From: Escherichia coli
Lineage (GTDB): Bacteria; Pseudomonadota; Gammaproteobacteria; Enterobacterales; Enterobacteriaceae
Assembly: GCF_013122565.1 (NCBI RefSeq)
Contig: NZ_CP053258.1
Reading direction: 5' to 3' (one strand)
DNA length: 64,000 bases
This document shows, one piece after another, positions 27,402 to 57,986 of this stretch (the first letter of the stretch is position 1; each line of letters begins with the position of its first letter). Position numbers and translations under genes: made by a program. The notes under the pieces are model-generated. The model saw only the letters and a list, made by a program, of their open reading frames with translations. It did no database searches and was not told where the DNA came from.

Positions 27402-29321
27402 ATGAATAAGTTTATCGCTGCTGAAGCTGCGGAATGTATAGGCTGTCATGCTTGTGAAATTGCCTGTGCGGTGGCACACAATCAAGAAAACTGGCCGCTG
27501 AGTCACAGTGACTTTCGACCACGTATCCACGTTGTAGGGAAAGGCCAGGCTGCGAATCCGGTGGCCTGCCATCACTGCAACAATGCCCCTTGCGTTACGG
27601 CTTGTCCGGTTAATGCTCTGACTTTCCAGTCCGATAGCGTACAACTGGACGAGCAAAAATGTATTGGTTGTAAAAGATGCGCAATCGCTTGCCCCTTTGG
27701 CGTCGTTGAGATGGTCGATACGATTGCGCAGAAATGCGACCTTTGTAACCAGCGCAGTTCCGGCACGCAAGCCTGTATTGAAGTTTGCCCAACACAGGCG
27801 TTACGACTGATGGACGATAAAGGGTTACAGCAGATAAAGGTGGCCCGCCAGCGCAAAACGGCAGCAGGAAAAGCGTCATCAGACGCTCAGCCATCTCGCA
27901 GTGCAGCGTTGCTCCCCGTTAACTCGCGTAAAGGCGCAGATAAAATTTCAGCAAGTGAACGGAAAAACCACTTTGGCGAAATCTATTGCGGGCTGGATCC
28001 ACAACAAGCGACTTATGAGAGTGACCGCTGTGTTTATTGTGCCGAAAAAGCTAACTGCAACTGGCATTGCCCGCTGCATAACGCTATTCCGGATTACATC
28101 CGTCTGGTACAGGAGGGAAAGATTATTGAAGCGGCAGAACTTTGCCACCAGACCAGTTCCTTACCAGAAATCTGCGGCAGGGTATGTCCACAGGACCGTC
28201 TTTGTGAAGGTGCATGTACTTTGAAAGATCACTCTGGCGCAGTCTCTATCGGTAATCTGGAACGCTACATCACCGATACCGCGCTGGCGATGGGCTGGCG
28301 TCCCGATGTCAGCAAAGTTGTTCCCCGTATCGAGAAAGTGGCGGTGATTGGCGCTGGGCCTGCAGGGTTAGGGTGTGCTGATATTCTGGCGCGCGCAGGA
28401 GTTCAGGTCGATGTCTTTGATCGCCATCCAGAAATTGGCGGTATGCTGACTTTTGGCATTCCTCCTTTCAAACTCGATAAAACGGTATTAAGCCAGCGGC
28501 GAGAGATATTCACCGCAATGGGAATCGACTTTCATCTTAACTGTGAAATTGGCCGCGATATTACCTTTAGCGATTTAACTTCTGAATATGATGCAGTTTT
28601 CATCGGCGTGGGGACTTACGGGATGATGCGAGCAGATCTGCCACATGAAGATGCGCCCGGTGTCATTCAGGCTCTACCGTTCCTGACTGCCCATACCCGC
28701 CAGCTCATGGGATTGCCGGAGTCTAAAGAGTATCCGCTGACGGACGTGGAAGGTAAGCGAGTCGTGGTATTGGGCGGTGGCGATACGACAATGGATTGTT
28801 TGCGGACTTCCATTCGCCTCAATGCTGCCAGCGTGACCTGCGCGTATCGTCGTGATGAAGTCAGTATGCCGGGCTCGCGCAAAGAGGTGGTCAATGCGCG
28901 CGAGGAAGGTGTCGAGTTTCAATTCAATGTTCAGCCGCAATATATCGCTTGTGACGAAGATGGGCGTTTAACTGCGGTGGGCCTGATTCGTACCGCCATG
29001 GGTGAGCCGGGGCCGGATGGTCGCCGTCGTCCTCGTCCGGTAGCGGGTTCAGAGTTTGAATTGCCCGCCGATGTTCTCATTATGGCCTTTGGTTTCCAGG
29101 CGCATGCCATGCCGTGGTTGCAGGGCAGCGGAATTAAACTCGATAAATGGGGCCTGATTCAAACCGGCGACGTTGGGTATTTACCTACCCAGACGCATCT
29201 GAAAAAAGTCTTTGCTGGTGGTGATGCAGTTCATGGCGCGGATCTGGTTGTCACTGCAATGGCCGCAGGAAGGCAGGCGGCGCGCGATATGTTAACTCTG
29301 TTTGATACGAAGGCATCGTGA
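27402..29321 (+). CDS. ygfT: Fe-S flavoprotein: N-terminal 2x[4Fe-4S] ferredoxin domain fused to a GltD-like NAD(P)H/FAD oxidoreductase
   Basis: four CxxCxxCxxxCP clusters, then dinucleotide-binding motifs [14 protein letters not shown] and [13 protein letters not shown]; RBS aaggga 5 nt before the ATG at 27402. Confidence 0.9.
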
Positions 29322-29809
29322 TGAAATCGTTAATTATCGTTAATCCGGCTGACTGTATTGGCTGCCGTACTTGTGAAGTAGCCTGTGTGGTCGCTCACCC
29401 TTCAGAACAGGAGTTGAATGCCGATGTCTTTTTACCCCGGCTGAAGGTACAGCGATTGGACAGCATCAGTGCGCCGGTGATGTGCCATCAGTGTGAAAAC
29501 GCCCCTTGTGTTGGCGCTTGCCCCGTGGGGGCGCTGACGATGGGCGAGCAGGTGGTGCAGACCAATTCTGCCCGTTGTATTGGCTGTCAGAGTTGCGTCA
29601 GTGCGTGCCCGTTTGGAATGATCACCATTCAGTCGTTGCCGGGGGATACCCGGCAACAAATCGTGAAATGCGATCTCTGTGAACAGCGGGAAGAGGGGCC
29701 AGCCTGCGTTGAATCTTGCCCAACACAGGCGCTGCAGTTGCTTACTGAAAGAGAACTCAGGCGAGTCCGCCAGCAGCGTATTGTTGCCAGCGGTGAGAAT
29801 CCTCTGTGA
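29321..29809 (+). CDS. ygfS: 4Fe-4S ferredoxin-like electron-transfer protein
   Basis: 162 aa with four Cys clusters ([43 protein letters not shown]...CVESCP); start overlaps the ygfT stop. Confidence 0.85.
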
Positions 29810-29844
29810 AAGAAATCTCCGCGCTGAAAGGCGCGGAGAATCTA

Positions 29845-31212
29845 TTAGATTGCCCAACCACCCGCGTAAAATGCGACCAGTGCGGCAGTAATGATCACCG
29901 TACCAATATTCAGCTTTTGCCATTCGCGTGCAAAGACGCGGCCTACGACCAGTGTCACAAAGCCCAGCATAATACCGGTAACGATATTACAAGTCAGAAC
30001 GATGAACACGGCACACACCAGGCCAGCCATAGCGTCAATAAAATCATTGAAATCCAGCTTCGAGACGTTACTTAACATCAGCAAACCCACGTACATCAGA
30101 GCGGGTGCAGTGGCGTAACCAGGGATCAAAAATGACAGCGGTGATAAGAACAGAATCAGCAGGAATAACGCCCCCACTACGGTTGCGGTTAACCCTGTTT
30201 TACCCCCGGCGGCGGTTCCTGCCGCTGATTCGATATAAACCGCTGCGGGCGCTGCGCCCACCAGACCGGAGAATATTGAACTTACTGAGTCACTGGTCAG
30301 GGCTTTGCCGCCGTTGATGATCTGGTTGTCTTTATCCAACAAATTCGCCTGACCGGCGACAGCACGGATGGTGCCAGTAGCGTCGAACACTGCGGTCATC
30401 ACCAATGCCAGTACACTCGGAAGTACAGTTGGCTGGAGTGCGCCCATAATATCGAGGCTGAAAATCAGAGACTTACCATCTTCGCCAGTCAGGCTTGGCA
30501 TCGCCACCAGACCGTGGTATTTCACCGCTGGGTCAAAGATTAAGCCGATGATCGAAATTGCAATAATCACCAACAAGATCCCGCCGGGTACGCGACACTT
30601 CTCCAGACCGAAGATGACCGCCAGCCCCAGCAAGCTCATCATCACCGGGAAGGAGGTAAACGCACCGAGCGCCACTGGCAAGCCTTCAATCGGGTTTTTG
30701 ATAACCATACCCACACCGTTAGCAGCAATCAGCAGCAGAAACAGCCCGATACCGATACCTGTACCGTGAGCGATACCCATCGGCAAATTACGTAAGATCC
30801 AGGTACGCACACCGGTTACGGAAATGGCGGTGAAGATGACGCCCATCAGAAAGACCGCGCCCAGTGCGACAGGAACGCTAATTTGTTGCCCGAGTACCAG
30901 ACTGAATGCGGTAAACGCCGTCAGGGAAATCGCGCAACCAATCGCCATTGGCAAATTGGCCCATAACCCCATCAGCAACGAGCCGAAGCCCGCGACCAGA
31001 CAGGTGGCAACAAACACAGCTGCGGGAGGAAAACCTGCTTTGCCCAGCATTCCCGGAACAACGATAACGGAATAAACCATGGCCAGAAAGGTCGTTAAGC
31101 CAGCCAGTACTTCCTGACGAACGGTACTGCCACGAGCGGTAATTTTAAAATAATTATCCAGCGCGCCCTGTGGCTTTGGTGCGTCCGGTGTTTGTAGGAT
31201 GTCTCCAGACAT
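29845..31212 (-). CDS. ghxQ: guanine/hypoxanthine permease (NCS2 AzgA-like)
   Basis: 455 aa polytopic transporter [34 protein letters not shown]. Confidence 0.9.
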
Positions 31213-31247
31213 AATGATGTCCTCACGAGGATGTTAAAGTTTTATTA

Positions 31248-32564
31248 TTAGTTGCGTTCGTACACCAGACGACCATCAACGTAGGTGCGGTAGATCGAAC
31301 GGTCATCGCCCAACGTCATCATCACGAACAATTTGTCGACTAAAGAAACAGAGTTGTCATAGCGCAGCTGCTGTAGCGGAGTGGCGGTGGGTTCCATCAC
31401 CACGAAATCAGCCTCTTTGCCAGGTAAAAAGTTGCCAATCAAATCGTCAAGGCCCAGAGATTTCGCTCCGCCGAGCGTGGCCAGGTAAAACGCTTCATAT
31501 GCCGAGAGGCGATAGCCTTGTAATTGCAATACTTTGTAGGCTTCGTTCAGCGTTTGCAGCATGTTGAAAGTGGTTCCGGCACCAATATCCGTTCCCATGC
31601 CCACTTTGACTTTCTTCTGCCATGCTTTTTTCAGGTTGAATAAGCCGCTGCCGAGGTAAAGGTTGGAGGTCGGACAGAAAGCAATGCTGGATTTGGTTTC
31701 GCTGAGACGATCCCACTCTTTTTCTTCGAGATGGACGCAGTGAGCAAAGACACAGTTTTTACCGGTCAGGCCGTACTGATGGTAAACATCCAGATAACCA
31801 TCATGGTCAGGATAAAGCGATTTCACCCAGGCAATTTCATCTTTGTTTTCACAGAGATGGGTATGTACCCACGTATCCGGATATTCCTCTTTCAGGCGTT
31901 GCGCCATCGCCATCTGTTCAGGAGAAGAAGTAGGGGCGAAGCGTGGTGTAATCGCATATAGCAGACGACCATTTTTGTGCCAGCGTTCAATCAGTTCTTT
32001 GCTTTGGTGATAGCTGCTTTCGGCAGTGTCGAGCAGATAATCCGGTGCGTTACGGTCCATCATCACCTTACCGGCAATCATACGCATATTGATATGACTG
32101 GCGGCTTCAAACAGCGCATCAACGGATTGCGGATGAACAGTGCCAAACACCAGCGCCGTGGTGGTTCCGTTACGTAAAAGCTGCTTGATGAAGAACGCCG
32201 ACATTTCGCGGGCGTACTCTAAATCCTCATAACGCCGTTCAGTAGGGAAGGTGTGTTTATTCAACCACTCCAGCAATTGTTCACCATAGGCCCCCACCAT
32301 TTCACTTTGCGGATAATGGATATGTGTATCGACAAAGCCCGGTACTATCAGTTTGCCGCGATAGTCGCGCACGCGAATGGTGTCAGGAATTTGATGCTTT
32401 CCGTTTTCCCATTCGCCAAACCATTCCACTTTTCCCTGTTTAATGAGTAATAAACCATCCTCAATAAACCGCAGCGCAGAGGCAATCTCTTCCGGGTTAT
32501 CGACCGTACGGGTGACATCAATAAAACTGCCTCGTACCGCTTTTAACGTGTGTTCTCCTGACAT
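31248..32564 (-). CDS. guaD: guanine deaminase
   Basis: amidohydrolase with metal-binding HxH (DTHIHYPQ); start MSGEHTLK preceded by RBS aaggag; ORF-track extension trimmed. Confidence 0.9.
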   Translation of the reverse strand: MSGEHTLKAVRGSFIDVTRTVDNPEEIASALRFIEDGLLLIKQGKVEWFGEWENGKHQIPDTIRVRDYRGKLIVPGFVDTHIHYPQSEMVGAYGEQLLEWLNKHTFPTERRYEDLEYAREMSAFFIKQLLRNGTTTALVFGTVHPQSVDALFEAASHINMRMIAGKVMMDRNAPDYLLDTAESSYHQSKELIERWHKNGRLLYAITPRFAPTSSPEQMAMAQRLKEEYPDTWVHTHLCENKDEIAWVKSLYPDHDGYLDVYHQYGLTGKNCVFAHCVHLEEKEWDRLSETKSSIAFCPTSNLYLGSGLFNLKKAWQKKVKVGMGTDIGAGTTFNMLQTLNEAYKVLQLQGYRLSAYEAFYLATLGGAKSLGLDDLIGNFLPGKEADFVVMEPTATPLQQLRYDNSVSLVDKLFVMMTLGDDRSIYRTYVDGRLVYERN

Positions 32565-32581
32565 TATTGACTCCTTTACTG

Positions 32582-33982
32582 TTAATCCATCTCTTCCGCT
32601 GAGGTAATACCAGGCAGAACGTTTTCCTGTCGGTAGCCACCAGGGAGGATAATATTTAATAAAATCGCAGTTAACCCGCCAGCACAAATAGGGTTTTCAA
32701 CTAATACATAAATAGAGGCTGGCAATATTTTAAAAATTTCGGGATCGTAGGAGACGCCAAGCCCTAAACCTAAAGAAGTGGCGACAATAAGTGTTTCACG
32801 CCGCTTTAATCCGTTGGTGATGATGATGCGAATCCCAGCGATGGCAATCATGGAAAACATCAACGTCATTGCGCCTCCCAGAACTGCCGAGGGAATGGTC
32901 GTGAAGAAGCCGCCAATCATCGGAAATAAGCCGAGGATAACCAGCATTACCGCGATGGTTCGCCCGACATAACGTGAAGCGACGCCAGTCATCTGAATAA
33001 CCCCATTATTTTGCGCAAACGTGGTTAATGGTAATGAACCGACAGCGGAGGCGATAACAGAAACCAGACCATCTGCCAGCACGCCGCCTTTCAGTCGGGA
33101 CTGATACTCTTCCCCCTGAATGGGGCGGCGGGAAACCATTGCCGTGGCGGTGATATCGCCGACTGCTTCCAGCACGCTAAGCAGATAAATCGTGCCAACC
33201 ACCAGGAACTGATGGAAGCTAAAACTAAAGCCGTATTTGAACGGATGCGGGATGGTGATTAACGGCAAATTGCGCATACTGCTGAAATCCACCATGCCCA
33301 GGCATAACGATGCGATATAGCCGACACATAGCCCAATGGCGATCCCTCCCATGCGTAGCAACGGACTGCGACAGCAGTTAAAGCCGATCACCACAATTAA
33401 AACCAATAAACCAACGCCGAGATGTTCGTAATTGCCGAACGTACCACTGCTTTTGGCTGCAAATCCTCCACCAAAATCGATAATGCCGACTTTAATCAGG
33501 CTTAAGCCGATCATCAGTACCACAATACCGCTGACGGTAGGCGTAATAACCCGACGTAAATAGGGCAAGATAAATGAAGATCCGACAACCAGAAATGCGC
33601 CAACGAAGGAGACGCCGAGAAGCGACGACATGATTAACTCTTCGTGAAAACCGTCGCTTTTCATGCTGCTGCCCAGCGCAATCATGACCGTAACAAATGA
33701 AAAATTGACTGACTGAATTGAGAGTAGGCCAGAACCGACGATGCCGTAGCGGTTTACTTGTAACCAGGTACCAATACCAGAGGCGATCATCGCCATAGAA
33801 ACAAGATAGGCGGTTGTTTCAGCGGAAAGCTGTAAGGCCGCACCCACGATTAACGCGGGGGTTACCATCGGAACGAAAATTGCCAACAGATGGGTAATGG
33901 CACCAACGAGAGACTGATGAAAGGGAGGGCGATCCTCCAGTTCAAATATAAGGTCAGAACCTGCATGGTTTATATCAGACAT
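32582..33982 (-). CDS. xanQ: xanthine permease (NCS2/NAT family)
   Basis: 466 aa from MSDINHAGSDLIFELEDRPPFHQ; NAT signature region. Confidence 0.9.
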   Translation of the reverse strand: MSDINHAGSDLIFELEDRPPFHQSLVGAITHLLAIFVPMVTPALIVGAALQLSAETTAYLVSMAMIASGIGTWLQVNRYGIVGSGLLSIQSVNFSFVTVMIALGSSMKSDGFHEELIMSSLLGVSFVGAFLVVGSSFILPYLRRVITPTVSGIVVLMIGLSLIKVGIIDFGGGFAAKSSGTFGNYEHLGVGLLVLIVVIGFNCCRSPLLRMGGIAIGLCVGYIASLCLGMVDFSSMRNLPLITIPHPFKYGFSFSFHQFLVVGTIYLLSVLEAVGDITATAMVSRRPIQGEEYQSRLKGGVLADGLVSVIASAVGSLPLTTFAQNNGVIQMTGVASRYVGRTIAVMLVILGLFPMIGGFFTTIPSAVLGGAMTLMFSMIAIAGIRIIITNGLKRRETLIVATSLGLGLGVSYDPEIFKILPASIYVLVENPICAGGLTAILLNIILPGGYRQENVLPGITSAEEMD

Positions 33983-34146
33983 CCCTTCACTCCTTTTAAA
34001 GTAAATTTGATCATCTGAATTAGTAAAATAAATTCCCACGAATTTGGGGCGCAGGACGCCTTGAGAACGGCTTATCTCATTTTCGCAGTCACTATTTAGT
34101 CATCGTTCAAACAGAGAAACAGGCCGCCGAAGCGGCCATTTATTAT

Positions 34147-37017
34147 TTATATTTTTTCCAGCGCAGTGAGTATTTTCTCCGGTGTGAAATGCCATTCGCG
34201 TAACCAGATGCCGCAGGCATCGTGAATTGCGGTAGCAATCGCCGGAGCTGCGCCATTTACACCGATTTCCGAGATCGATTTCGCCCCGAACGGGCCGACT
34301 TTATCGTCGCTCGGCACCAGCACAGCGCGGAAATCACGCGGAATGTCACCAATTTTCGGTGCGCCGTAACTGCGTAAATCACGCGTTAACGGGTGACCTT
34401 CGGCGTCATAAATGATCTCTTCGCTCATACTGTGGCCGATAGCACGCAGGGTGGCACCGTAGATTTGTCCCAACGCTAACTCTGGATTGACCGGTGTACC
34501 GCAGTCCAGCAAGGCGTAGAATTTATCCAGGCTGATTTCACCCGTACGCGTGTTGACGGCAACTTCAGCGAAGTTTGCGCCATACGGGAAAGCGAAATCA
34601 GGCGTGATATAACTGCCAGTTCCCACCAGTGAACCAAAGCCGGTGCCGGTTTCGCCTTTATGGGCAATATCCCCGAAACTAACTTCGCCTTTCTTGCCGC
34701 GCACGACGCCCGGCGTTGCTAGTTGAACATCTGCCACTGGCTCACCCAACATTTGCGCGCCGTGGAACAGAATTTTCTCCCGCAGATTTTCCGCTGCTAA
34801 ACGCGCCGCGTTACCCGAGAAGCAAGTACCGGACGAGGCATATGCGCCTTTATCAAACAACGCATGATCGGTATCACCGGAGATAACATGCACGTCCTGT
34901 GGTGGGCAGTGCAGCACTTCTGCTGCCAGTTTCGTCACCACAGTATCCAGACCAGTACCAATATCCGCACCGCCAGAATGAACAATAAAGGTGCCGTCCG
35001 ATTCCAGTTTGATCATGCAGTTAGCCTGATCGATATCCGGGATACCCGATTTCTGCATGATAATGGCGACGCCGCGACCGATGTGCCAGTCACCATTTTG
35101 CGGTTTCGGTGACGACCATTGGATCATCTCGCGACCCTGACGCAGGATCTCTTCCAGTGCGCAGCTGGCGGCGGAAGGAACGGAGGTTGGCGCTTTACCT
35201 TCACCGATTGCACCGAGAATTTTCAGCTCTTGCCCTTCGTGTACCCGGTTACGTTCGATAATTTCCAGTTGGTCGATCTGTAACTGTTCAGCCAGTTCCG
35301 CTAATGCCATGGTGATAGCGAAGTTACCTTTCGGTGCGCCATAACCCTGATAAGCACCATTTGGGCAAATGTTGCTGTAGTAGGTGGTGACCTGGAAATC
35401 GACGTTATCGCACGGATATAACGGCAGCGACAGCGCCGGTCCGTTACATGGTACGGTGAGTGAGTGGTTGCCGTAAGGGCCAGTGTTGGCGCGGAAATCC
35501 ATCTTCACTGCCGTCAGGCGACCATCTTTTTTCGCTCCCAGTTTGACGGTGACTTTCGCGACGTGACGAGAGGTGTTAGCAATAAACTCTTCTTCACGGG
35601 TGTAGCGGAACAGTACCGGACGCCCGGTCACGCAGGTTGCCCAGGCGCACACTTCTTCCAGCAGGATGTCCTGTTTGGAACCAAAACCGCCGCCAACTCG
35701 CTCTTTAATGACATGAACTTTATGCTGTTTCATGCCCACGAGGCGCGCGACCTGGCGGCGTAAGTGCCATGGTACCTGGGTGGAGGCGTGGATAACCAGA
35801 CGATCGCCGTCCATACGAGTAAAGCAGATATGTGTTTCAGTCGGGCACTGCTGCGCCTGCGTTGAGTTATAGGTTCGCTCAATGATCACATCGGCATCGG
35901 CAAAGCCTTTGTCCATATCGCCAATATGACCATGAATACTGGCGGCGATATTTTTGCGTGGACGAGAACCGATCGGGAAGTTGATGATCATATGCTCGCC
36001 GCGCTGGGCTGCATGGCTGTTATCGTCTTCCAGAGTATCTGGCGCACCAGCAACATACACCACCGGTTCATCGTGCACGACAGGCGCATCTTCCGCCATT
36101 GCTTCGTCGATCGACATTACCGGCTTAAGCACTTCATATTCAACGTCGATGAGCTTCAGTGCTTCGAGCGCAATTTCTTCACTTTCAGCGACCACCGCAG
36201 CAACGCGATCGCCGACGTGACGCATTTTCTTGCCGAACATACGGCGGTCAAGCGGTGACGGTTCCGGTGCGCTCTGCCCCCCCGGGGTATAGTAGATATC
36301 CGGGCAATTCAGGTGAGTAATAACGTGAACGACGCCCGGTAAGGCTTCAGCTTTGCTGACATCCAGATGAGTAATCAGTGCGTGAGCGTGTGGGCTACGT
36401 AACATTTTAATGACGCAGGCGTCAGCCGTTACGCGGTCTTCAACATAGCAGGGTTTCGCCTGCACCATTTTCGCGGCATCAGTTTTAGGATAATGCTTGC
36501 CAATGACGTCAAGGTCGTCACGGAAAGTCGGAGCGATATCAATGGTGGCCTGCGGATTATTTTTACGTGCAACCGCCAGTTCAATGACCTGATAGTATTG
36601 TTGCCAGCCTGCATCGCGGCTGAACAAACCAGAAAGCGCGTCGTCGATCTCTTCGCGGGTAGGTGCGGCGATACGATCGAGAAGATCGGTGATAATCAGA
36701 GCTGCAGCTGGATCGTTATAACCAGACTGCACCACGCCAACATCAACCATTGCCTGTTGAACCAGACTTAACTCGTTCCATTTGCCCAGAGATTCTGCGG
36801 TACGAATATCTGCCTTCTCTAACTGTGCGGCAATAAGCAAGGACGCGTTAACGATATTACCTTTAAAGATAATTGCGTCAGAACCGGCAAACCCAAAGCC
36901 ATCATCACTGTTGCGTACAGAGTGCATTCCCATGTTAAACAACAGATTCTGCACGTTTTCGCCTGGATTAACGGTTAGCTCCTGAGGCGCGCCATTTAAA
37001 GTAAAGTGGATGATCAT
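34147..37017 (-). CDS. xdhD: molybdopterin-dependent hydroxylase, fused [2Fe-2S] and Mo-binding subunit (xanthine-dehydrogenase family)
   Basis: 956 aa with N-terminal 2Fe-2S ferredoxin-like region followed by aldehyde oxidase / xanthine dehydrogenase Mo-binding domains. Confidence 0.9.
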   Translation of the reverse strand: MIIHFTLNGAPQELTVNPGENVQNLLFNMGMHSVRNSDDGFGFAGSDAIIFKGNIVNASLLIAAQLEKADIRTAESLGKWNELSLVQQAMVDVGVVQSGYNDPAAALIITDLLDRIAAPTREEIDDALSGLFSRDAGWQQYYQVIELAVARKNNPQATIDIAPTFRDDLDVIGKHYPKTDAAKMVQAKPCYVEDRVTADACVIKMLRSPHAHALITHLDVSKAEALPGVVHVITHLNCPDIYYTPGGQSAPEPSPLDRRMFGKKMRHVGDRVAAVVAESEEIALEALKLIDVEYEVLKPVMSIDEAMAEDAPVVHDEPVVYVAGAPDTLEDDNSHAAQRGEHMIINFPIGSRPRKNIAASIHGHIGDMDKGFADADVIIERTYNSTQAQQCPTETHICFTRMDGDRLVIHASTQVPWHLRRQVARLVGMKQHKVHVIKERVGGGFGSKQDILLEEVCAWATCVTGRPVLFRYTREEEFIANTSRHVAKVTVKLGAKKDGRLTAVKMDFRANTGPYGNHSLTVPCNGPALSLPLYPCDNVDFQVTTYYSNICPNGAYQGYGAPKGNFAITMALAELAEQLQIDQLEIIERNRVHEGQELKILGAIGEGKAPTSVPSAASCALEEILRQGREMIQWSSPKPQNGDWHIGRGVAIIMQKSGIPDIDQANCMIKLESDGTFIVHSGGADIGTGLDTVVTKLAAEVLHCPPQDVHVISGDTDHALFDKGAYASSGTCFSGNAARLAAENLREKILFHGAQMLGEPVADVQLATPGVVRGKKGEVSFGDIAHKGETGTGFGSLVGTGSYITPDFAFPYGANFAEVAVNTRTGEISLDKFYALLDCGTPVNPELALGQIYGATLRAIGHSMSEEIIYDAEGHPLTRDLRSYGAPKIGDIPRDFRAVLVPSDDKVGPFGAKSISEIGVNGAAPAIATAIHDACGIWLREWHFTPEKILTALEKI

Positions 37018-39172: not shown

Positions 39173-39174
39173 GA

Positions 39175-49568: not shown

Positions 49569-49624
49569 TATTTTTCTCCAGATTTTTACTCCCCGTTTTG
49601 CAGGGAGCAGTTCCAATAGGGTGA

Positions 49625-50821
49625 TTAAGGTGCTACAGCGTGTTTGCCTTCCCAGACAACTTCGCGGTAGTGCTTCACGTCGGTGTCGCCTTCAGTGCTG
49701 ATAACCAGCACTACGGCATCTTTGTTCAGCGCCAGTTTTTGCATCAGGCTTTGACGTTGCGGGTGATAATGAACCGCCGCGAGAACGCCCAAACCGACAG
49801 CGCCGGATTCACCGGAGATGATGCGCGGGTCGTTGCCGTACGGATTACCCAGCACGCGCATACCTAATGCGGCAACGCTGTCCTGGCAGGAGATGAATTG
49901 GGTGGCGCAGTTACGTAGGATTTCCCAGCCCAGCGGGTTAGGTTCGCCACAGGCCAGGCCCGCCATGATGGTGGCCATATCACCGCCAACGTTGACGATG
50001 TCGCCTTTGACGCCGGAGCGATAAATACAGTCAGCTTTGTCAGGTTCAACAATAATGCTGTGCAGATTTTGCGGGCTGTAGACGTCGACCAGATAACCCA
50101 GCACACCACCGGCCATTGCACCGACACCGGCTTGCAGCAGAACGTGTGTCGGGGTTACGCCCATTTCACGCATTTGCTCGACGGCTTCATCTGCCAGTGT
50201 TGCGTAGCCTTGCATGATCCAGGTTGGGATTTTAGTGTAACCTTCCCATGCCGTGTCCTGTACCACTTCCCAGCCGTGCTGCTGCGCGTGTTGCATGGTC
50301 AGGCGAACGGTATCGTCATAGTTCATATCCGTGACGATGCACTCGGCACCGAGGTTCAGAATGGCGTCAACGCGTTCCTGAGCAGAACCTTTCGGCATGT
50401 AAATCACCGCATTCTGTCCGAGTTGCTGTGCTGCCCACGCCACACCGCGCCCGTGGTTGCCGTCGGTGGTGGTCGCGAAAGTCATTTTTTCGCCGATGGC
50501 ATTTTTCAGGTGCTCAAATGACAGCGTTTCGATATCAAGATGATATTTTTCACACAATAATTGAGCGATGGCGTACGCACCGCCGAGCATTTTGAAGGCG
50601 TTCAGACCGAATCGTTTTGATTCGTCTTTGACGAGAATTTTCTTCACACCAAAAAGGTTTGCGAGATCGTCCAGCGCACAAAGCGGTGTTGGGCGATAAC
50701 CAGCTATTTTCTGGTGGAACTGGCGCGCCAGTTTGGCCTGGCTTTGCGAAAAGAGCGGTGATGTTTCGCCGTTGAAAAATTTGTTATCGGCGATATCAAT
50801 CTTCAATGAGAAAACGGACAT
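49625..50821 (-). CDS. ygeX: 2,3-diaminopropionate ammonia-lyase (PLP-dependent)
   Basis: 398 aa, tryptophan-synthase-beta-like PLP fold; the alternative name for this gene is dpaL. Confidence 0.9.
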
Positions 50822-50878
50822 ATCCTATCCTTTTGGCCTCTGGAAATAGAGGGCCGACCAGCTGATCGGCCCGAGGGG

Positions 50879-52069
50879 TTATTTCACGCGTTCTTGCGCT
50901 TCTTTCAGCAGTTGCTCGAGCAGTGCACCTGGTTTGGCGTATTTACGGGACAGGATCATCGCGGCGATGATATAAGGCTTCCAGCTGGCTTCTTTGTAGG
51001 TAGCGATACGGTATTTTTCGAATACGCCTTCAGTCACTTCACCTTCTTTGCAGGATACGCCGCTGATATCAGCTGGCAGGCAGTGCATGTACAGGGCTTC
51101 GCCATCACGGGTCAGTTCCATCATCTCTTCAGTACAATGCCAGTCTTTGTGTTGCGCGTTCTGTGCCAGACACTGTTTTTCCAGTGCTTTTAAGCCTTCG
51201 TGGTCGTTTGCACGCAGCAATTCAGTACGCTCTTCCATCACTTTGTAAGGTGCCCATGACTTCGGATAAACGATGTCTGCGTCTTTGAAGGCTTCTTCCA
51301 TGCTGGTGACCTGACGGAAGCTACCACCGGAGGCTTTAGCATTGTTTTTCGCCACTTCAACCACATCCGGGATCAGGTCGTAGCCTTCCGGATGGGCCAG
51401 GGTGACATCCATACCGAAGCGAGTCATCAGACCGATGATGCCTTGTGGTACAGAGAGCGGTTTGCCATAGCTTGGGGAGTAGGCCCAGGTCATGGCGATT
51501 TTTTTACCTTTCAGGTTTTCCAGTGAACCAAAGTGTTCACGTAACCATGCCAGGTCAGCCATTGACTGAGTCGGGTGGTCAATATCACATTGCAGGTTCA
51601 CTAAAGCCGGACGTTGCGGCAGAACACCCTGCTTGTAACCGTCATCAAGTGCAGCGCCAACTTCACGCATATAGGCGTTGCCTGCGCCCAGATACATATC
51701 GTCGCGAATACCAATAGCGTCGGCGCAGAAGGAGATCATATTGGCGGTTTCACGCACGGTTTCGCCGTGAGCGATTTGTGATTTGCCTTCGTCGAGATCT
51801 TGCTGTGCAAGGCCGAGCAGGTTAAGCGCGGAAGCATAAGAGAAGCGGGTACGAGTGGAGTTGTCGCGGAATACGGAAATACCTAATCCACTGTTAAAGA
51901 CTTTGGTTGAGATGTTTTCAGCACGCAGTGCTTTTAATGCTGCGGCAACGTCCAGTACTTGTTTCAGTTCATCTGGCGTCTGTTCCCACGTTAACAAAAA
52001 ATCTTTCTCGTGAAGGTGAGAGGTCAGCGAATTGATATCCTTAATCAGCTCATTAACAGTTTTCATCAT
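50879..52069 (-). CDS. ygeW: carbamoyltransferase-family protein (OTC/ATC fold, substrate unresolved)
   Basis: 396 aa with STRTR carbamoyl-phosphate-binding motif and HCLP motif. Confidence 0.9.
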   Translation of the reverse strand: MMKTVNELIKDINSLTSHLHEKDFLLTWEQTPDELKQVLDVAAALKALRAENISTKVFNSGLGISVFRDNSTRTRFSYASALNLLGLAQQDLDEGKSQIAHGETVRETANMISFCADAIGIRDDMYLGAGNAYMREVGAALDDGYKQGVLPQRPALVNLQCDIDHPTQSMADLAWLREHFGSLENLKGKKIAMTWAYSPSYGKPLSVPQGIIGLMTRFGMDVTLAHPEGYDLIPDVVEVAKNNAKASGGSFRQVTSMEEAFKDADIVYPKSWAPYKVMEERTELLRANDHEGLKALEKQCLAQNAQHKDWHCTEEMMELTRDGEALYMHCLPADISGVSCKEGEVTEGVFEKYRIATYKEASWKPYIIAAMILSRKYAKPGALLEQLLKEAQERVK

Positions 52070-52544
52070 AAAGTCCCGGTAGTGGAATGACAGGCAAAGT
52101 GGTTTATTTCACTGTGACTTGCCAAAGTGATTGGTGTTTTCACAGCTATACTTGGGACTAACAATAAGTGTGCCAGAATTATCCACGGGGCTGCAAAAGA
52201 CTAATTTGACGGATAATGTGTGGGGTTGATCACAAATTGATGCCAGCTTCCGGTTGTTTGTAAAATACGAAAACGTTTGGCTTTTTTTATCGCGTTATTT
52301 ATTTGCTGCTAAGTATCAGAAATAAGATAAAGGGGCAGGCTATCCCTCGTCAGTTTGATAAACTCACCGCCGTAATTCTCATATTGATATAGAAATGTGA
52401 TATCTCTTCCATAATTTCATTAGAAAGTGATAAAAATCTTATGTTTTTATCAAAGCCAATTTCGCCTGAGTTAATATCATCATGATCTGTGAACCATCAA
52501 CGTCTTCAATGATCGACTTTTAAGTAAGTCTGGAAGGTAAAGCT

Positions 52545-54323
52545 ATGGAGCTTGCTACTACGCAGTCAGTATTGATGCAAATTCAACCGACAATTCAGCG
52601 TTTTGCCAGAATGCTTGCCAGCGTTTTGCAGCTTGAGGTTGAGATCGTTGATGAAAACTTGTGTCGCGTCGCCGGAACTGGCGCGTATGGGAAGTTTCTT
52701 GGTCGCCAGTTGAGCGGCAACTCACGCCTGCTCCGCCACGTCCTGGAAACGAAAACTGAAAAAGTTGTGACACAGTCTCGCTTCGATCCCCTTTGTGAAG
52801 GTTGCGATAGTAAAGAAAATTGCCGCGAAAAAGCATTTCTGGGTACGCCTGTCATTTTACAGGATCGTTGTGTTGGGGTGATAAGTTTGATTGCCGTTAC
52901 CCACGAGCAACAAGAGCATATTAGTGATAATTTACGCGAATTTTCTGATTACGTTCGCCATATATCCACCATTTTTGTTTCGAAACTTCTGGAGGATCAG
53001 GGACCAGGAGATAACATCAGTAAAATATTCGCGACCATGATCGATAATATGGATCAGGGCGTATTAGTTATTGATGACGATAATCGGATTCAGTTTGTTA
53101 ATCAGACAGCCTTAAAAACACTCGGTGTTGTGCAAAATAATATTATTGGGAAACCTATCCGTTTCAGACCATTAACATTTGAGAGTAATTTTACCCATGG
53201 ACATATGCAGCATATTGTTTCGTGGGACGATAAAAGTGAGTTAATCATTGGTCAATTGCATAACATTCAGGGCCGACAATTATTTTTAATGGCGTTTCAC
53301 CAATCGCATACCAGTTTTTCTGTAGCAAATGCACCTGATGAACCGCATATTGAACAATTGGTTGGCGAGTGCCGTGTTATGCGGCAATTAAAACGACTCA
53401 TTAGCCGTATTGCACCCAGCCCATCCAGCGTTATGGTGGTTGGTGAAAGCGGCACGGGTAAAGAAGTCGTCGCCCGTGCAATCCATAAGTTGAGCGGAAG
53501 ACGGAATAAACCCTTTATTGCTATCAACTGTGCCGCGATTCCGGAGCAGCTTCTGGAGAGCGAACTGTTCGGTTATGTTAAAGGCGCATTTACTGGCGCT
53601 TCTGCCAACGGTAAAACAGGGTTGATTCAGGCGGCGAATACGGGCACGCTGTTTCTCGATGAAATAGGTGATATGCCATTAATGTTGCAGGCTAAATTAC
53701 TGCGCGCTATTGAGGCACGTGAAATTCTGCCGATTGGTGCCAGTAGCCCAATACAAGTCGACATTCGCATCATTTCTGCAACTAACCAGAATTTGGCCCA
53801 GTTCATTGCAGAAGGTAAATTCCGCGAAGATCTCTTCTACCGACTTAATGTTATCCCGATAACTCTGCCACCGCTGCGTGAACGTCAGGAAGATATTGAA
53901 CTACTGGTGCATTATTTTTTACATCTGCATACCCGTCGTCTGGGATCGGTTTATCCGGGCATTGCTCCCGATGTCGTCGAAATATTGCGTAAGCATCGTT
54001 GGCCCGGAAACCTGCGCGAGTTAAGCAATTTGATGGAATATCTGGTTAACGTGGTTCCTTCAGGTGAAGTTATCGACAGCACGCTATTGCCGCCAAATCT
54101 GCTGAATAATGGCACAACGGAGCAAAGTGATGTAACAGAGGTCAACGAGGCGCACCTGGCACTCGATGATGCGGGCGGCACGGCGCTGGAGGAGATGGAA
54201 AAGCAAATGATCCGCGAGGCGCTTTCACGTCATAACAGCAAGAAGCAAGTTGCTGATGAACTGGGCATCGGCATTGCTACGCTCTATCGCAAGATTAAGA
54301 AATATGAGTTGTTAAACACATAA
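52545..54323 (+). CDS. ygeV: sigma54-dependent transcriptional activator (bacterial enhancer-binding protein)
   Basis: 592 aa; AAA+ core with Walker A GESGTGKE and the sigma54-contact GAFTGA motif; C-terminal HTH; N-terminal sensory region. Confidence 0.9.
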   Translation: MELATTQSVLMQIQPTIQRFARMLASVLQLEVEIVDENLCRVAGTGAYGKFLGRQLSGNSRLLRHVLETKTEKVVTQSRFDPLCEGCDSKENCREKAFLGTPVILQDRCVGVISLIAVTHEQQEHISDNLREFSDYVRHISTIFVSKLLEDQGPGDNISKIFATMIDNMDQGVLVIDDDNRIQFVNQTALKTLGVVQNNIIGKPIRFRPLTFESNFTHGHMQHIVSWDDKSELIIGQLHNIQGRQLFLMAFHQSHTSFSVANAPDEPHIEQLVGECRVMRQLKRLISRIAPSPSSVMVVGESGTGKEVVARAIHKLSGRRNKPFIAINCAAIPEQLLESELFGYVKGAFTGASANGKTGLIQAANTGTLFLDEIGDMPLMLQAKLLRAIEAREILPIGASSPIQVDIRIISATNQNLAQFIAEGKFREDLFYRLNVIPITLPPLRERQEDIELLVHYFLHLHTRRLGSVYPGIAPDVVEILRKHRWPGNLRELSNLMEYLVNVVPSGEVIDSTLLPPNLLNNGTTEQSDVTEVNEAHLALDDAGGTALEEMEKQMIREALSRHNSKKQVADELGIGIATLYRKIKKYELLNT

Positions 54324-54362
54324 CCTCAGTGAATCCGGCCTGAATTCAGGCCGGATATCCTT

Positions 54363-54842
54363 TTACTTCGTTTTCTCGCAATCCAGAACCGTATTTACAA
54401 TCATCTGATACCCCGTGCAGCGACAAAGATTTCCCGCCAGTCCGCGACGAATTTCCGTAATGGTTAATGGCTTCTCGCGTGGTTTCGCCAGCATTGCCGT
54501 GGTAGCCATAATCAGGCCAGGCGTACAAAACCCGCACTGCACTGCGCCGGATTTCGCATAAGCCTGCTGAACATGAGAAAGTTTTCCGCCTTTCGCTTCA
54601 CCTTCCAGCGTGCGGATCTCTTTTCCTTCAGCCCAGGCGGCAAGGTATAAGCAACTGTCTATTGCTGTGCCGTCGACCAGCACCGTACAGGCACCACATT
54701 CACCCACGCAGCACCCTTGTTTGACACTTAGCAGTCCTTGTTCGCGGAGTAATTCCGAGAGTGGCGTGCCTGGTGCGGCGTGAAGCTGAAAAGGCATCCC
54801 GTTAATGGTGCATTCGATGGTAATTGTTTCGCTGTGATTCAT
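54363..54842 (-). CDS. xdhC: xanthine dehydrogenase [2Fe-2S] subunit
   Basis: 159 aa with plant-type and second 2Fe-2S Cys motifs ([22 protein letters not shown]). Confidence 0.9.
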
Positions 54843-55717
54843 TGCAATTTTCCCCCCGCCGCGGCGACGGCTTCGCTAATCACTTTTTTGGTCATCGTCT
54901 GGATGAGATGCAGACGAAACTCTTTACTGGCCCGCCATGAAGAACGCGGGGCGACATCTTGCAGGACAGATTCGCTGATAGCTTCCAGCGTTTGCAGTTT
55001 TAATGGCGCATTTTGTGCAGTCTGTTCGGCATGTTGGCAGCGAATCGGCGTTGGCGCGGCAACACCAAATGCCAGACGTAATTCGCTGAAATTGCCGTTA
55101 TCCAGTCGGCAATGTGCGGCGCAGCCAATCGTTGAAATATCCATTGCGTCGCGCATGGCATATTTAAAATGCGCGCTGCCCGCGTGTTCTTTCGGCTGGG
55201 GCGGAAAATGAAAGGCGACAAGGATTTCGTCATGCTCAAGAGACACTTTGCCCGGCCCAGTGTGAAAGCCATTAATCGGGACGAAACGAACACCGCGTGG
55301 GGAGTGGATCTCCAGCTTTGCGTCATAAATTAGCGTTGGCGTGGCAGAATCTGCGCTGGTGGCACCGTTGCAAATATTTCCACCGTAGGTAGCGACGTTA
55401 CGGATCTGCGGTCCGGCAATGGATGAGGCCGCAGCACATAACGCCGGGAGATGACGTTGAGTTACAGGATCTTCAATGAGCTGGGTAAATGTCGTTGCAG
55501 AGCCGATACGTAGCGAGCCATCTTCCGCCAGCGTAATTCCCCGCAATTCCGCCAGATTATGAATATCAACAATATGGCGATAACGGTCATTGTGATGGTG
55601 GAGCTGAATCAGTACGTCAGTGCCACCGGCGAGCAGTTTGGCCTGCGGGTTGTCAGCCAGCAGGTTGATGGCATCGGCAAGGGTTGCTGCGCGATGGTAA
55701 GAAGCAAAATCAAACAT
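54839..55717 (-). CDS. xdhB: xanthine dehydrogenase FAD-binding subunit
   Basis: 292 aa CO-dehydrogenase flavoprotein fold; overlaps the xdhC start. Confidence 0.9.
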
Positions 55718-55727
55718 GATGTTATCC

Positions 55728-57986
55728 TCAAATCAATCCTGCCAGATGGAACTCTTCATATAACCGTTTTGGCGTCAGCGGCAGTGTATTGATTGCAACA
55801 CCGGTAGCCATCTTCACCGCGTTACGAATAGCTGCGGCAACAGGAATTATTGGTGGCTCACCCAGTGACTTATGTCCGTATGCGGATTGCGGCTCATTGA
55901 TTTCGACGAACGCGCTTTCCAGTTGTGGCAGATCCGGCATGGTCGGCATTTTGTAATCCAGCAGATTGGGGTTACGGACCACGCCGCTTTTCGCATCGAT
56001 GATCATCTCTTCAAATAGTGCCCAGCCAATGCCCATTCCCATTCCGCCGTGTACCTGACCTTCTGCTAGCAGCGGATTAAGAATATGCCCCGAATCATGA
56101 ACGTTGAGGATGCGGTTGATGGTGACTTTACACAGCGCAATATCGACCGTCAGGTCAACAAAGGTACAGCCAAACGCCGGTGGGTTAGTGGTGGTTTTGA
56201 TGGAGCTTTCAGCAGAGAGCTGCCCGCCGCGTTCAGAGTGGTAGAAAGCGTCCATCGCCAAAACTTTTAACGACATTAACGGCTCTTCCGGTCGTTCAAT
56301 TAGCACGATATGGCCTTTTATCAGGGTCAGATTCATCGCTGACTGATGTAGCATGACTGCGGCGTGAGCGATGATTTTCTCTTTTAATAACAGTGCTGCA
56401 CTGCGCAGCGCAGGCGCGGCAACATAGCTCTGGCGTGAGGCAAATGCGCCAGGATCGAACGGCGTAACGTCGGTATCTTGTGTTGAAATAACGCGAATGT
56501 CGCTGACCGGAACCCCCACGGTTTCTGCCACCATTTGCGAGAAGACGGTGTCGGCACCCTGGCCGATTTCCGTCGCGCCGCTTTGCACGTTGATGGTTCC
56601 ATCCTGATTCATCAACAGGCGCGCGCCTGCTATTTCTACGCCGACAGGCCAGGTGTTAGAGGTGTAGCTAAAACAGGCGACGCCAACGCCGCGGCGTAAA
56701 TTGCCTTGCTGGTTCTGGCACTCTGCACGGCGTTTTTCCCATTCAAAGATTTTCCGGCCTTTTTCAAGACACTCCGGCAACCCTGCGCTGTAAATACGTT
56801 TGCCTGTGAGCGGATTAGCATCTCCTTCGCGGGCGGCGTTGCGTAAACGAATTTCAACAGGATCAATACCTAACGCTGTCGCGGCGTCATCAAGCATAGA
56901 CTCAACGGCAAATACGACTTGTGGCGCGCCATAACCACGCATCGCACCAGCCGAGGGGAGGTTGGTATAGCAGGTCTTTGAACTGTAAGCGTAGGCACAA
57001 CGAGGATAAAGGTAAGCGACTTTATTCCCCCCCGCAGAAGCGATGGAGTGCCCGTGAGATGCGTAAGCGCCGGTGTTAGACAGAACATCCAGACTATAAC
57101 CTTTCAATGTTCCGTCGCGGTTCACGCCCATTTGCCCGTCAATAGTAAAAGCGTGGCGGGTACGGGTTGCGAGGAAACACTCTTCACGGCTAAGGGACAC
57201 TTTCACCGGAATGCCGCCAAGCTTGCTGGTCAGGAATGCCGCCATTGGCTCTTCCAGTACATCCTGTTTATTACCAAAACCGCCACCGACAAACGGTTTG
57301 ATGACTCGTACGCATGACCAGGGAATATTCAGCGCCTGACCAACCACACGGCGAACAATGTGCGGGATCTGGGTGCTGGAAACGATGGTAATTCGCGAGT
57401 CATCCTCCATCCATGCCAGCGATGTCACGCTTTCCATGTGACAATGTTGAATGACCGGCGTCTGATAGTGCCCCTGTACCTGGTAGTCGGCGGCATCGAT
57501 TGTTTGTTGGACATTGCCCGTCGACATCGTGCTTTGTTTTAGTAAATTGCCGCCGTTATGGATTGGTGCAGCGTCATCAGCCAGCGCCGCTTCTGGGGTG
57601 GTGATAACGGGTAATTCTTGCCACTCAATGCTGACCAATTGCGCCGCTTTTTCTGCCGTGAGTTCATCACGGGCCACGACGATGGCAACGGCGTCACCAT
57701 GGTGACGAACATGGCGAGTTAGCAGTGCGCGATCGGCGGTATCGCGCTTGTTTTCGTCAAGTGTCCAGGCATGCCCAGCTGTAGCGAATGGGATATCAGG
57801 CACATCTTCCCAGGTAAAAATCGCCAGTACGCCCGGTAAACTTCTGGCTTGTTCATCATTAATACTTACGGCATAACCATGTGCGATAGGGCTACGTACA
57901 TATTTCGCGTAACACATGCCCGCCATAACATAATCGTCAGTATATCGTGCCCGCCCGGTGACCTTAGCAATGGCATCTACGCGCAT
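55728..57986 (-). CDS. xdhA: xanthine dehydrogenase molybdenum-binding subunit
   Basis: 752 aa from MRVDAIAKVTGRARYTDDY; ORF-track 13-codon extension trimmed. Confidence 0.9.
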   Translation of the reverse strand: MRVDAIAKVTGRARYTDDYVMAGMCYAKYVRSPIAHGYAVSINDEQARSLPGVLAIFTWEDVPDIPFATAGHAWTLDENKRDTADRALLTRHVRHHGDAVAIVVARDELTAEKAAQLVSIEWQELPVITTPEAALADDAAPIHNGGNLLKQSTMSTGNVQQTIDAADYQVQGHYQTPVIQHCHMESVTSLAWMEDDSRITIVSSTQIPHIVRRVVGQALNIPWSCVRVIKPFVGGGFGNKQDVLEEPMAAFLTSKLGGIPVKVSLSREECFLATRTRHAFTIDGQMGVNRDGTLKGYSLDVLSNTGAYASHGHSIASAGGNKVAYLYPRCAYAYSSKTCYTNLPSAGAMRGYGAPQVVFAVESMLDDAATALGIDPVEIRLRNAAREGDANPLTGKRIYSAGLPECLEKGRKIFEWEKRRAECQNQQGNLRRGVGVACFSYTSNTWPVGVEIAGARLLMNQDGTINVQSGATEIGQGADTVFSQMVAETVGVPVSDIRVISTQDTDVTPFDPGAFASRQSYVAAPALRSAALLLKEKIIAHAAVMLHQSAMNLTLIKGHIVLIERPEEPLMSLKVLAMDAFYHSERGGQLSAESSIKTTTNPPAFGCTFVDLTVDIALCKVTINRILNVHDSGHILNPLLAEGQVHGGMGMGIGWALFEEMIIDAKSGVVRNPNLLDYKMPTMPDLPQLESAFVEINEPQSAYGHKSLGEPPIIPVAAAIRNAVKMATGVAINTLPLTPKRLYEEFHLAGLI

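Follow-up and report, generated by a model that had tools for sequence, protein, structure and literature searches.

The window analysed here is a stretch of 64,000 nucleotides of Escherichia coli (RefSeq assembly GCF_013122565.1, contig NZ_CP053258.1), in which a 31-kb block constitutes the standard E. coli cluster for the uptake of purines, their conversion to uric acid and the anaerobic breakdown of the latter. The end products of uric acid in this pathway are, without oxygen, pyruvate, ammonia, CO2 and ATP. Overall, the block is interpreted, with a probability of about 90%, as the purine-to-pyruvate catabolic island of E. coli, with the reductive '2,8-dioxopurine' uricolytic pathway at its centre and complemented by selenium, electron-input, YgeV and CRP steps that we infer. 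It corresponds to the reductive uricolytic cluster of E. coli proper and not to a variant, and as such it was already known; the additions made here are a candidate operator palindrome, CRP-like sites and the predicted dihydroorotate-dehydrogenase (DHOD)-like fold of the YgfK N-terminus.

Gene content, preservation and distribution of the cluster

To begin with, 22 intact genes were located in 25518-58025, from uacT through xdhA, using the open reading frame (ORF) listing, the RefSeq annotation of E. coli strain A30 and the NCBIfam models. These genes appeared in the order uacT (minus strand), ygfT-ygfS (plus), ghxQ-guaD-xanQ (minus), xdhD-ygfM-ssnA-ygfK (minus), mocA (minus) and yqeC-yqeB (plus), continuing on the ygeW side with arcC(yqeA)-hyuA-ygeY-dpaL(ygeX)-ygeW (minus), ygeV (plus) and xdhC-xdhB-xdhA (minus). 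Thus, the gene content, order and strands described in an earlier model-made note on the same letters (the sequence-only reading) were borne out by all three sources. No internal stops were found in the translations of the 22 genes, whose proteins were 98-100% identical to their RefSeq counterparts in strain A30, and 20 of the 22 proteins scored above the curated cut-off of a specific NCBIfam family, the exceptions being ghxQ and ygfS. Moreover, the coding density reached 93% over 25518-58025, and no riboswitch or small RNA was found within the cluster using Rfam. Regarding its limits, the sequence-only reading had delimited the block as 27402-57986, of which the first position coincided with the ATG of ygfT, but the last one turned out to be an internal ATG of xdhA, whose ORF extends to an ATG at 58025 and yields the 765-aa form also present in RefSeq for strain A30. 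The functional unit comprises approximately 25518-58230, since the xdhA sigma-54 promoter and its upstream sites reach about 58230.

The region 27402-47402 was present over at least 80% of its length in at least 5,146 of the 5,426 complete E. coli genomes, with a best DNA identity among them of 99.0%, followed by 98.3-98.6% for the flanks, and the window corresponds to an E. coli-group lineage without a close representative among these genomes. The grouping of these genes is not due to chance, because 5,146 of the 5,426 genomes have the block and a core centred on ygeW recurs in other genera and phyla. This was observed when about 100,000 species genomes were scanned with YgeW. The scan returned 80 loci (the counts over 81 loci include these and the E. 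coli A30 reference), distributed from Citrobacter to Bacteroidota, Riflebacteria and Spirochaetales, and at least 80 other species had close YgeW relatives (68-96% identity). Among the genes located within 10 kb of ygeW, ygeY appeared in 70 of the 81 loci, followed in frequency by hyuA (46), yqeA (44), ygeX (39), ygeV (37), yqeB (21), ssnA (20) and ygfK (16). In particular, the set ygeW-ygeX-ygeY-hyuA-yqeA accompanied by ygeV was found in Citrobacter, Klebsiella, Edwardsiella, Hafnia, Serratia, Morganella, Photobacterium and beta-proteobacteria, and the Aeromonas loci presented the operon, with ygeV detected in some of them. The co-occurrence profiling proposed in the sequence-only reading was run through the neighbourhoods of ygeW, and it reproduced the published distribution.

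From purine uptake to pyruvate

Purified proteins, mainly those of E. coli, were used by Li et al. (Life Metab 2025, PMC12507026) to reconstitute the steps of the pathway. The same scheme was reached independently by Liu et al. (bioRxiv 10.1101/2025.04.24.650524), who combined enzymes from C. sporogenes and E. coli with isotope tracing and mutants, a work that later appeared in Nat Microbiol 10:2291 (2025), according to PMC12990295. The pathway is regarded as solved in the commentary by Percudani (PMC12990295). Hence, the view of the sequence-only reading that the biochemistry was largely unresolved and the substrates of XdhD, YgfK, SsnA, YgeW, YgeY and HyuA unassigned is outdated, as these were assigned by Li et al. 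and Liu et al. 2025. On the other hand, the anaerobic purine-to-carbamate route that it envisaged was right in outline, as the route ends in carbamoyl phosphate and carbamate kinase and is co-regulated by a sigma-54 activator.

Uptake has been shown by others to depend on UacT for urate, XanQ for xanthine and GhxQ for guanine/hypoxanthine. In the window, uacT (25518-26966, minus strand) encodes the urate/H+ symporter of the NCS2 family, with 509.6 bits for TIGR03173 (cut-off 414) and 99% identity to A30. The xanthine permease gene xanQ (32582-33982, minus strand) matched the NCS2 superfamily model TIGR00801 (455.2 bits, cut-off 291.8), its score for the pbuX model (413.7) being slightly below the cut-off of 414.15, and the product of ghxQ (29845-31212, minus strand) was 100% identical to the annotated A30 GhxQ, with no NCBIfam match at E<=1e-40. 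Others have also shown that GuaD, the guanine deaminase (31248-32564, minus strand; TIGR02967, 633.6 bits), converts guanine to xanthine, and that hypoxanthine and xanthine are turned into urate by the xanthine dehydrogenase (XDH) XdhABC. The latter is encoded on the minus strand by xdhA (55728-58025), xdhB (54839-55717) and xdhC (54363-54842), with NCBIfam scores of 1479.9, 531.8 and 341.9 bits, respectively, all above the cut-off. As for the mutants described by Li et al. (PMC12507026), xanthine consumption was lost in the delta-xdhA strain, urate accumulated in the delta-xdhD strain and the hydantoin of the pathway was no longer formed in the delta-ygfK strain.

Urate is then deoxygenated instead of being returned through xanthine, the key intermediate being the isomer 2,8-dioxopurine. 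XdhD co-purifies with YgfM and, using NADH, converts urate to 2,8-dioxopurine ('yanthine') by removal of the oxygen at C6 (PMC12507026). The genes for the molybdenum/iron-sulphur (Mo/Fe-S) and FAD subunits of this urate 6-dehydroxylase, xdhD (34147-37017; TIGR03313, 2115.6 bits, cut-off 1101.9) and ygfM (37014-37793; TIGR03312, 489.7 bits, cut-off 241.5), overlap by 4 bp on the minus strand, and the XdhD encoded here has Glu606, the residue proposed by Li et al. (PMC12507026) to orient urate. Subsequently, YgfK reduces the pyrimidine ring of 2,8-dioxopurine with NAD(P)H, and hydrolysis by the amidohydrolase SsnA, which opens the six-membered ring, leads to ureidomethyl-hydantoin (PMC12507026; bioRxiv 10.1101/2025.04.24.650524). 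Both genes lie on the minus strand, separated by a gap of 2 bp: ssnA (37844-39172; TIGR03314, 739.5 bits) and ygfK, for the NAD(P)H:2,8-dioxopurine reductase (39175-42273; TIGR03315, 1783.2 bits).

The remaining enzymes are encoded by the five minus-strand genes between yqeA and ygeW (both included), all of which exceeded their NCBIfam cut-offs. The hydantoin ring is opened by HyuA (46919-48304; above the curated cut-off), assayed as the C. difficile enzyme, to give 2,3-diureidopropionate, from which the carbamoyltransferase YgeW, in the presence of phosphate, takes off one ureido group and passes the carbamoyl to phosphate (PMC12507026). The ygeW gene (50879-52069, or with its start at 52066) scored 825.2 bits for NF005538, and its product matched the solved E. 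coli structure PDB 3q98 (E 5.9e-270). Carbamoyl phosphate is converted to ATP, CO2 and NH3 by the carbamate kinase YqeA (yqeA/arcC, 45939-46871; above the curated cut-off), as shown by others, and the formation of ATP from 2,3-diureidopropanoate by YgeW and YqeA together was reported by Liu et al. (bioRxiv 10.1101/2025.04.24.650524). Finally, YgeY (48357-49568; TIGR03526, 721.6 bits, above the curated cut-off) hydrolyses the second ureido group to give 2,3-diaminopropionate (DAP), which is converted to pyruvate and ammonia by YgeX (ygeX/dpaL, 49625-50821; above the curated cut-off) (PMC12507026). Given the 98-100% protein identity to the RefSeq E. coli strain, the particular proteins encoded in this window would likewise convert urate to pyruvate via 2,8-dioxopurine. 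Furthermore, according to Liu et al. (bioRxiv 10.1101/2025.04.24.650524), a fitness benefit is conferred by the pathway in mice.

Accessory genes for cofactors and electrons accompany those of the catabolic steps. MocA, the Mo-cofactor cytidylyltransferase (42595-43173, minus strand; TIGR03310, 213.7 bits, above the cut-off), provides the cytidine-dinucleotide Mo cofactor, as shown by others. The markers of selenium-dependent molybdenum hydroxylase maturation (Haft & Self 2008) yqeC (43276-44046; TIGR03172, 241.9 bits) and yqeB (44094-45719; TIGR03309, 416.6 bits), both on the plus strand and above their cut-offs, were positioned between the ygfK and ygeW operons, near the XDH-family enzymes, and selD was absent from the 64-kb window. 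In C. sporogenes, selenium and SelD are needed by the clostridial dehydroxylase and the pathway (Liu et al., bioRxiv 10.1101/2025.04.24.650524). In the proposed mechanism, YqeB and YqeC would install the labile selenium required by both molybdenum hydroxylases. Moreover, YgfT (uacF; 27402-29321, plus strand) belongs to the GltD/AegA-type Fe-S flavoproteins (NF009451, 1503.6 bits, cut-off 1154), and its gene overlaps by 4 bp with ygfS (29318-29809, plus strand), encoding a HydN-like 4Fe-4S ferredoxin with 98% identity to the A30 '4Fe-4S dicluster domain-containing protein'. YgfS reached no NCBIfam curated cut-off, the best complete-model match being HydN with 137 bits versus 260. YgfT and YgfS may constitute the electron-input module, through which formate-derived electrons would enter the four-electron reduction.

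Predicted fold of the YgfK N-terminus

The central part of YgfK matched domains of the dihydropyrimidine dehydrogenase (DPD)/GltD type, and no Pfam match was found for residues 1-450. The structure of the N-terminus was predicted because the sequence search against PDB covered only residues ~436-892 and returned nothing for this part of the protein. The model, computed with AlphaFold2 for residues 1-455 from a 20-sequence alignment of orthologues, had a predicted local distance difference test (pLDDT) of 82.5 and a predicted template modelling (pTM) score of 0.85. When compared with PDB using Foldseek, all of the 50 matches listed were dihydroorotate dehydrogenases (E 6e-7, probability 1.0, TM 0.47-0.6). 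The N-terminus of YgfK is therefore predicted to adopt a DHOD-like FMN barrel fold, and the whole protein would be composed of this N-terminal barrel, a GltD/DPD-type module for Fe-S, FAD and NAD(P)H and a 2x[4Fe-4S] tail. Such a barrel fits an FMN site for ring reduction, as in DPD, and the predicted fold is in line with the mechanism described by Li et al. (PMC12507026) as 'PydA-like reductive dearomatisation'.

Sigma-54 promoters, YgeV and co-regulation

The product of ygeV (uacR; 52545-54323, plus strand) was recognized by its Pfam domains and motifs as a sigma-54 enhancer-binding protein, with a weak GAF domain, PAS and AAA+ domains and a Fis-type helix-turn-helix (Sigma54_activat, E 2.1e-70; HTH_8, E 3e-13), the GAFTGA motif at residue 347 and the Walker A motif GESGTGKE at residue 300. 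Chromatin immunoprecipitation sequencing (ChIP-seq) in K-12 revealed sigma-54 binding upstream of xdhA, ygeW, ygfK and ygfT (Bonocora et al., PMC4591121), and all four K-12 ChIP-seq 17-mers occurred letter-exact in the window. The ygfT motif (27339-27355, plus strand; TATGCCCGTTTATTGCA) was a weak match to the consensus despite being identical to that of K-12. The other three were conserved in other genera, namely those of the ygfK operon (42346-42362, minus strand; GTGGTGCGATTGTTGCT), kept in 12 of 13 other genera, of ygeW (52160-52176, minus strand; CTGGCACACTTATTGTT), with TGGCA and TATTG cores invariant in a 21-sequence alignment, and of xdhABC (58081-58097, minus strand; CTGGCGTAAATCTTGCC), kept in 7 of 8 other loci. 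The number of sigma-54 consensus-like motifs across the window did not differ from chance (42 found vs. 42.9 expected), so the case for these promoters rests on position, K-12 identity and conservation. Sigma-70 promoter scans were also at chance level.

The 'YgeV iModulon' of PRECISE-1K comprises xdhABC, ygeWXY, hyuA, ygfK, ssnA, ygfM, xdhD, ygfT and uacT, and ghxQ-guaD-xanQ are not among its genes. Strong induction of ygfT by urate has been reported in the literature, and a ygeV mutant is reported, in a second-hand citation, to have reduced ygfT expression and impaired urate use. The sub-operons are co-regulated, because of the four sigma-54 promoters and the single iModulon, and their substrates are linked stepwise; sub-operons regulated independently and acting on unrelated substrates, which the sequence-only reading had named as evidence against its own proposal, were thus not what was found.

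A candidate operator of YgeV and nearby CRP-like sites

When the four upstream regions were compared, the palindrome ATCA-N3-TGA(T/G) was found upstream of all four sigma-54 promoters, at centre-to-centre distances from the sigma-54 motif of about 110-215 bp. The exact 12-mer TATCAATATGAG had three copies in the 64 kb (27162-27173, 52378-52389 and 58196-58207), each of them upstream of a sigma-54 promoter. The first copy is the candidate operator of the uacT-ygfT intergenic region (minus strand; 180 bp from the ygfT sigma-54 motif), and the second is that upstream of ygeW (minus strand; 215 bp from the sigma-54 motif), with additional ATCA half-sites on its flanks. Upstream of xdhA, two candidate operators were observed within 58196-58228 (plus strand), ATCAATATGAG at 58197 and ATCAATGTGAT at 58218, the copies being spaced by 21 bp and located at about 112 bp from the sigma-54 motif. 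Finally, the candidate upstream of ygfK (42531-42542, plus strand; 182 bp from the sigma-54 motif) was the 12-mer TATCATTATGAT, which together with the next base forms the perfect palindrome TATCATTATGATA, a variant of the former 12-mer.

In other genera, 33 of the 35 loci in which ygeV is divergent had the core motif upstream of ygeW, at about 213 bp from the -24 element, and it was also found upstream of ygfK and xdhA in 11 of 13 and 6 of 8 loci, respectively, against a background of 0.185 per kb (approximately 8% per 480 nt). As a negative control, none of the 40 loci from other phyla without ygeV presented the core motif upstream of ygeW. The alignment of 21 ygeV-ygeW intergenic regions also showed conserved islands (ATCACA..TATCAATATGAKA..TTATCAWWWTG, a TGTGA-N6-TCACA-like site and TGGCAC-N5-TTGT), the rest of the sequence having diverged. 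This pattern, as far as conservation of the letters can tell, resembles that expected of an operator for an enhancer-binding protein. No description of the palindrome was found in the searchable literature, in which Iwadate & Kato 2019 and RegulonDB were not included and where the letters of the motif turned up in unrelated primers only, so it may already be known.

Sites resembling those of CRP were observed in two of the promoter regions, in both cases between the candidate operator and the sigma-54 promoter. The site of ygfK (42425-42440) was a perfect TGTGA-N6-TCACA, kept in 7 of 13 other loci, and that of ygeW (52219-52234) had one mismatch and was partly conserved across genera. Li et al. 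(PMC12507026) described a native Crp site in the ygeW intergenic region and found the use of urate to be repressed by glucose, and the CRP sites at ygfK and ygeW would explain such repression. A candidate promoter layout, consisting of operator, CRP site and sigma-54 promoter, would then be shared. In the proposed mechanism, YgeV/UacR would sense urate or a derivative and then bind the ATCA-N3-TGA(T/G) palindromes upstream of the ygfT, ygfK, ygeW and xdhA promoters. Overall, it seems reasonably probable, although with far less confidence than the pathway itself, that ATCA-N3-TGA(T/G), with TATCAATATGAG as its E. coli core, is the YgeV/UacR operator at ygfT (possibly also at uacT), ygfK, ygeW and xdhA, which would form, together with the CRP sites at ygfK and ygeW, one urate-responsive and glucose-repressed regulon across gamma- and beta-proteobacteria.

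Other elements were observed in the same intergenic regions. A sigma-54-like motif, TGGCACTCCACGAGCA (27035-27050, minus strand), with the GG-N10-GC spacing kept, was located upstream of uacT, about 70 bp from its start, with the operator-like site 27162-27173 about 120 bp away, and it does not appear in the K-12 ChIP-seq table (PMC4591121); it could be a uacT promoter sharing its upstream site with ygfT. Moreover, PurR-box-like sequences with three mismatches to ACGCAAACGTTTGCGT were found in uacT-ygfT (26998-27013) and ygeW-ygeV (52267-52282), the latter being kept in the four or five nearest genera only (Citrobacter, Atlantibacter, Klebsiella indica, Trabulsiella). The ygeW gene was once included in a computational PurR regulon (PMC4576408), and these boxes are regarded as a weak lead outside the model.

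Regarding transcription within the five-gene set, strong GC-rich hairpins followed by a T-run were found on the minus strand after ygeW (50851-50872) and after ygeY (48320-48339). They may be internal terminators or attenuators tuning the relative enzyme levels. Thus, of the five-gene carbamoyltransferase-to-carbamate-kinase operon put forward in the sequence-only reading, the genes were confirmed but a single uninterrupted transcript was not, given these two elements. Terminator-like sites were as frequent as expected by chance in 25000-44999, and 42000-60000 had somewhat more of them than expected (33 vs. 21.1 +/- 4.6), and only a few individually strong hairpins were used.

Alternative explanations

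The alternative that retains most weight, although very unlikely, is that the block gathers independent modules with unrelated substrates, that is, purine salvage (xdhABC, guaD and the permeases), a hydantoin/D-amino-acid operon and an orphan molybdoenzyme. It draws on the annotation of HyuA as a D-phenylhydantoinase, on the characterization of YgeX alone as a DAP ammonia-lyase (read as DAP detoxification), on the hairpin and T-run elements within the five-gene set and on the position of ghxQ-guaD-xanQ outside the YgeV iModulon list. However, each enzyme took the product of the previous one in the stepwise in-vitro reconstitution (PMC12507026; bioRxiv 10.1101/2025.04.24.650524), the sigma-54 promoters, the iModulon and the upstream motif are common to the modules, and the genes adjoin across genera and phyla. 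An even smaller probability was assigned to ygfK-ssnA-ygfM-xdhD, yqeBC and ygeY being a selenate reductase or selenium-metabolism system, an explanation kept alive by the NCBIfam names ('putative selenate reductase YgfK', 'selenium metabolism-linked hydrolase') and by the co-occurrence of these genes with the SelD-linked YqeB/YqeC trait (PMC2276186). In contrast, selenate was neither needed by nor stimulating for YgfK, which was specific for 2,8-dioxopurine (Liu et al., bioRxiv 10.1101/2025.04.24.650524), and the link to selenium exists because the maturation of the molybdenum hydroxylases needs it; this explanation is largely refuted and the older 'selenate reductase' labels are misnomers. 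Equally improbable is the proposal of the review PMC12623156, argued from gene content and from an NrdR link reported for the ygfK operon, that the island serves chiefly to remove oxidised or modified guanine and pterin by-products, perhaps with release of guanidine, and not to draw energy from urate, since that review contains no enzymology and calls the island E. coli-specific, whereas in the genome scan YgeW had relatives in at least 80 other species, with the neighbours in most of them, and the defined substrates and products include no guanidine-forming step. All three explanations were rejected.

Several points nevertheless weigh against reading the block as a purine-to-pyruvate island with the regulation proposed above. 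The DNA of the window is just 98.3-99.0% identical to the nearest complete E. coli genomes, and all experiments come from other strains. Degradation of urate by E. coli was seen in certain media only (PMC12990295). Furthermore, the two 2025 papers differ in the cofactor of YgfK (NAD(P)H vs. NADPH only) and dispute the target of YgeW, which according to Liu et al. removes the 3-ureido group, giving 3-amino-2-ureidopropanoate, and according to Li et al. the 2-ureido group, giving albizziin (PMC12990295). Judging from N-acetylornithine carbamoyltransferase and the M20 hydrolases of the ArgE/DapE type, the 3-ureido group would be the expected target of YgeW and the 2-ureido group that of YgeY. In that commentary, the regiochemistry of YgeW is listed as a remaining point, together with stereochemistry, kinetics and the electron donor used physiologically. 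The roles of YgfT, YgfS, YqeB and YqeC are ones that we infer. As for regulation, the ygfT sigma-54 motif is poor compared with the consensus (score 4.5 in the table of PMC4591121), the operator was assigned from sequence conservation, and the palindrome could be bound by another factor. Moreover, the loci compared are related by descent, so binomial tails overstate the significance.

Significance and surroundings of the cluster

The biological importance of the cluster has already been recognized in print. Uricolytic gut bacteria clear a substantial share of human urate, and serum urate was lowered in uricase-deficient mice by E. coli Nissle over-expressing the cluster (PMC12507026; PMC12990295). 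The candidate operator and promoter layout could aid the engineering of inducible or de-repressed uricolytic probiotics.

Outside the cluster, the minus strand carries two Sib antitoxin RNAs in tandem (2000-2150 and 2393-2543) and the 6S RNA ssrS (3192-3375) at the left end of the window. On the opposite side, a glycoside hydrolase family 15 gene was located after tRNA-Gly (59273-59343), together with the first part of a type III secretion island (sctC, eivF), presumably of the ETT2 type. At least 80% of 58026-64000 was held by just 914 of the 5,426 genomes, which points to a variable junction (59273-64000).

Comparison with known systems

The closest system is the reductive uricolytic cluster of E. 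coli K-12/Nissle (Li 2025; Liu 2023, 2025; Kasahara 2023), with which the block shares its set of genes and their order. Its proteins are 98-100% identical to those of the RefSeq E. coli strain, the K-12 sigma-54 motifs are identical and Glu606 of XdhD is present. No functional difference was detected, the DNA being 1-1.7% diverged from the nearest complete genomes.

The clusters of C. sporogenes and C. difficile have in common with the block an XDH-family urate 6-dehydroxylase, SsnA, HyuA, YgeY, YgeX and the YqeB/YqeC/SelD selenium trait. However, unlike that of E. coli, the clostridial dehydroxylase lacks the FAD subunit YgfM and does not use NAD(P)H (PMC12507026). In C. difficile, YgfK is replaced by the PydA-like UacX, and YgeW/YqeA by the hydrolase UacY, hence no ATP is obtained there (PMC12507026). 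Neither a YgeV-type regulator nor the ATCA-N3-TGAT motif was found in the non-proteobacterial loci examined.

The reductive degradation of pyrimidines (PydA, PydB and beta-ureidopropionase) is similar in its sequence of reactions, with ring reduction by a flavin/Fe-S enzyme, opening by a cyclic amidohydrolase and removal of the ureido group. Moreover, HyuA matches the dihydropyrimidinase model and the predicted N-terminal barrel of YgfK is DHOD/DPD-like. In contrast to the pyrimidine route, the E. coli substrate is a purine isomer and one ureido group is removed by phosphorolysis for ATP. Furthermore, the FMN barrel of YgfK would be placed at the N-terminus, ahead of the Fe-S/FAD/NADPH module and not behind it as in DPD.

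Finally, the arginine deiminase pathway resembles the last steps in using a catabolic carbamoyltransferase in reverse together with a carbamate kinase for substrate-level phosphorylation, and YgeW shows a distant relationship with the ornithine carbamoyltransferase (OTC) of that pathway and with N-acetylornithine carbamoyltransferase. It differs in that YgeW is a 'knotted' carbamoyltransferase, whose substrate is ureido-DAP and not citrulline.

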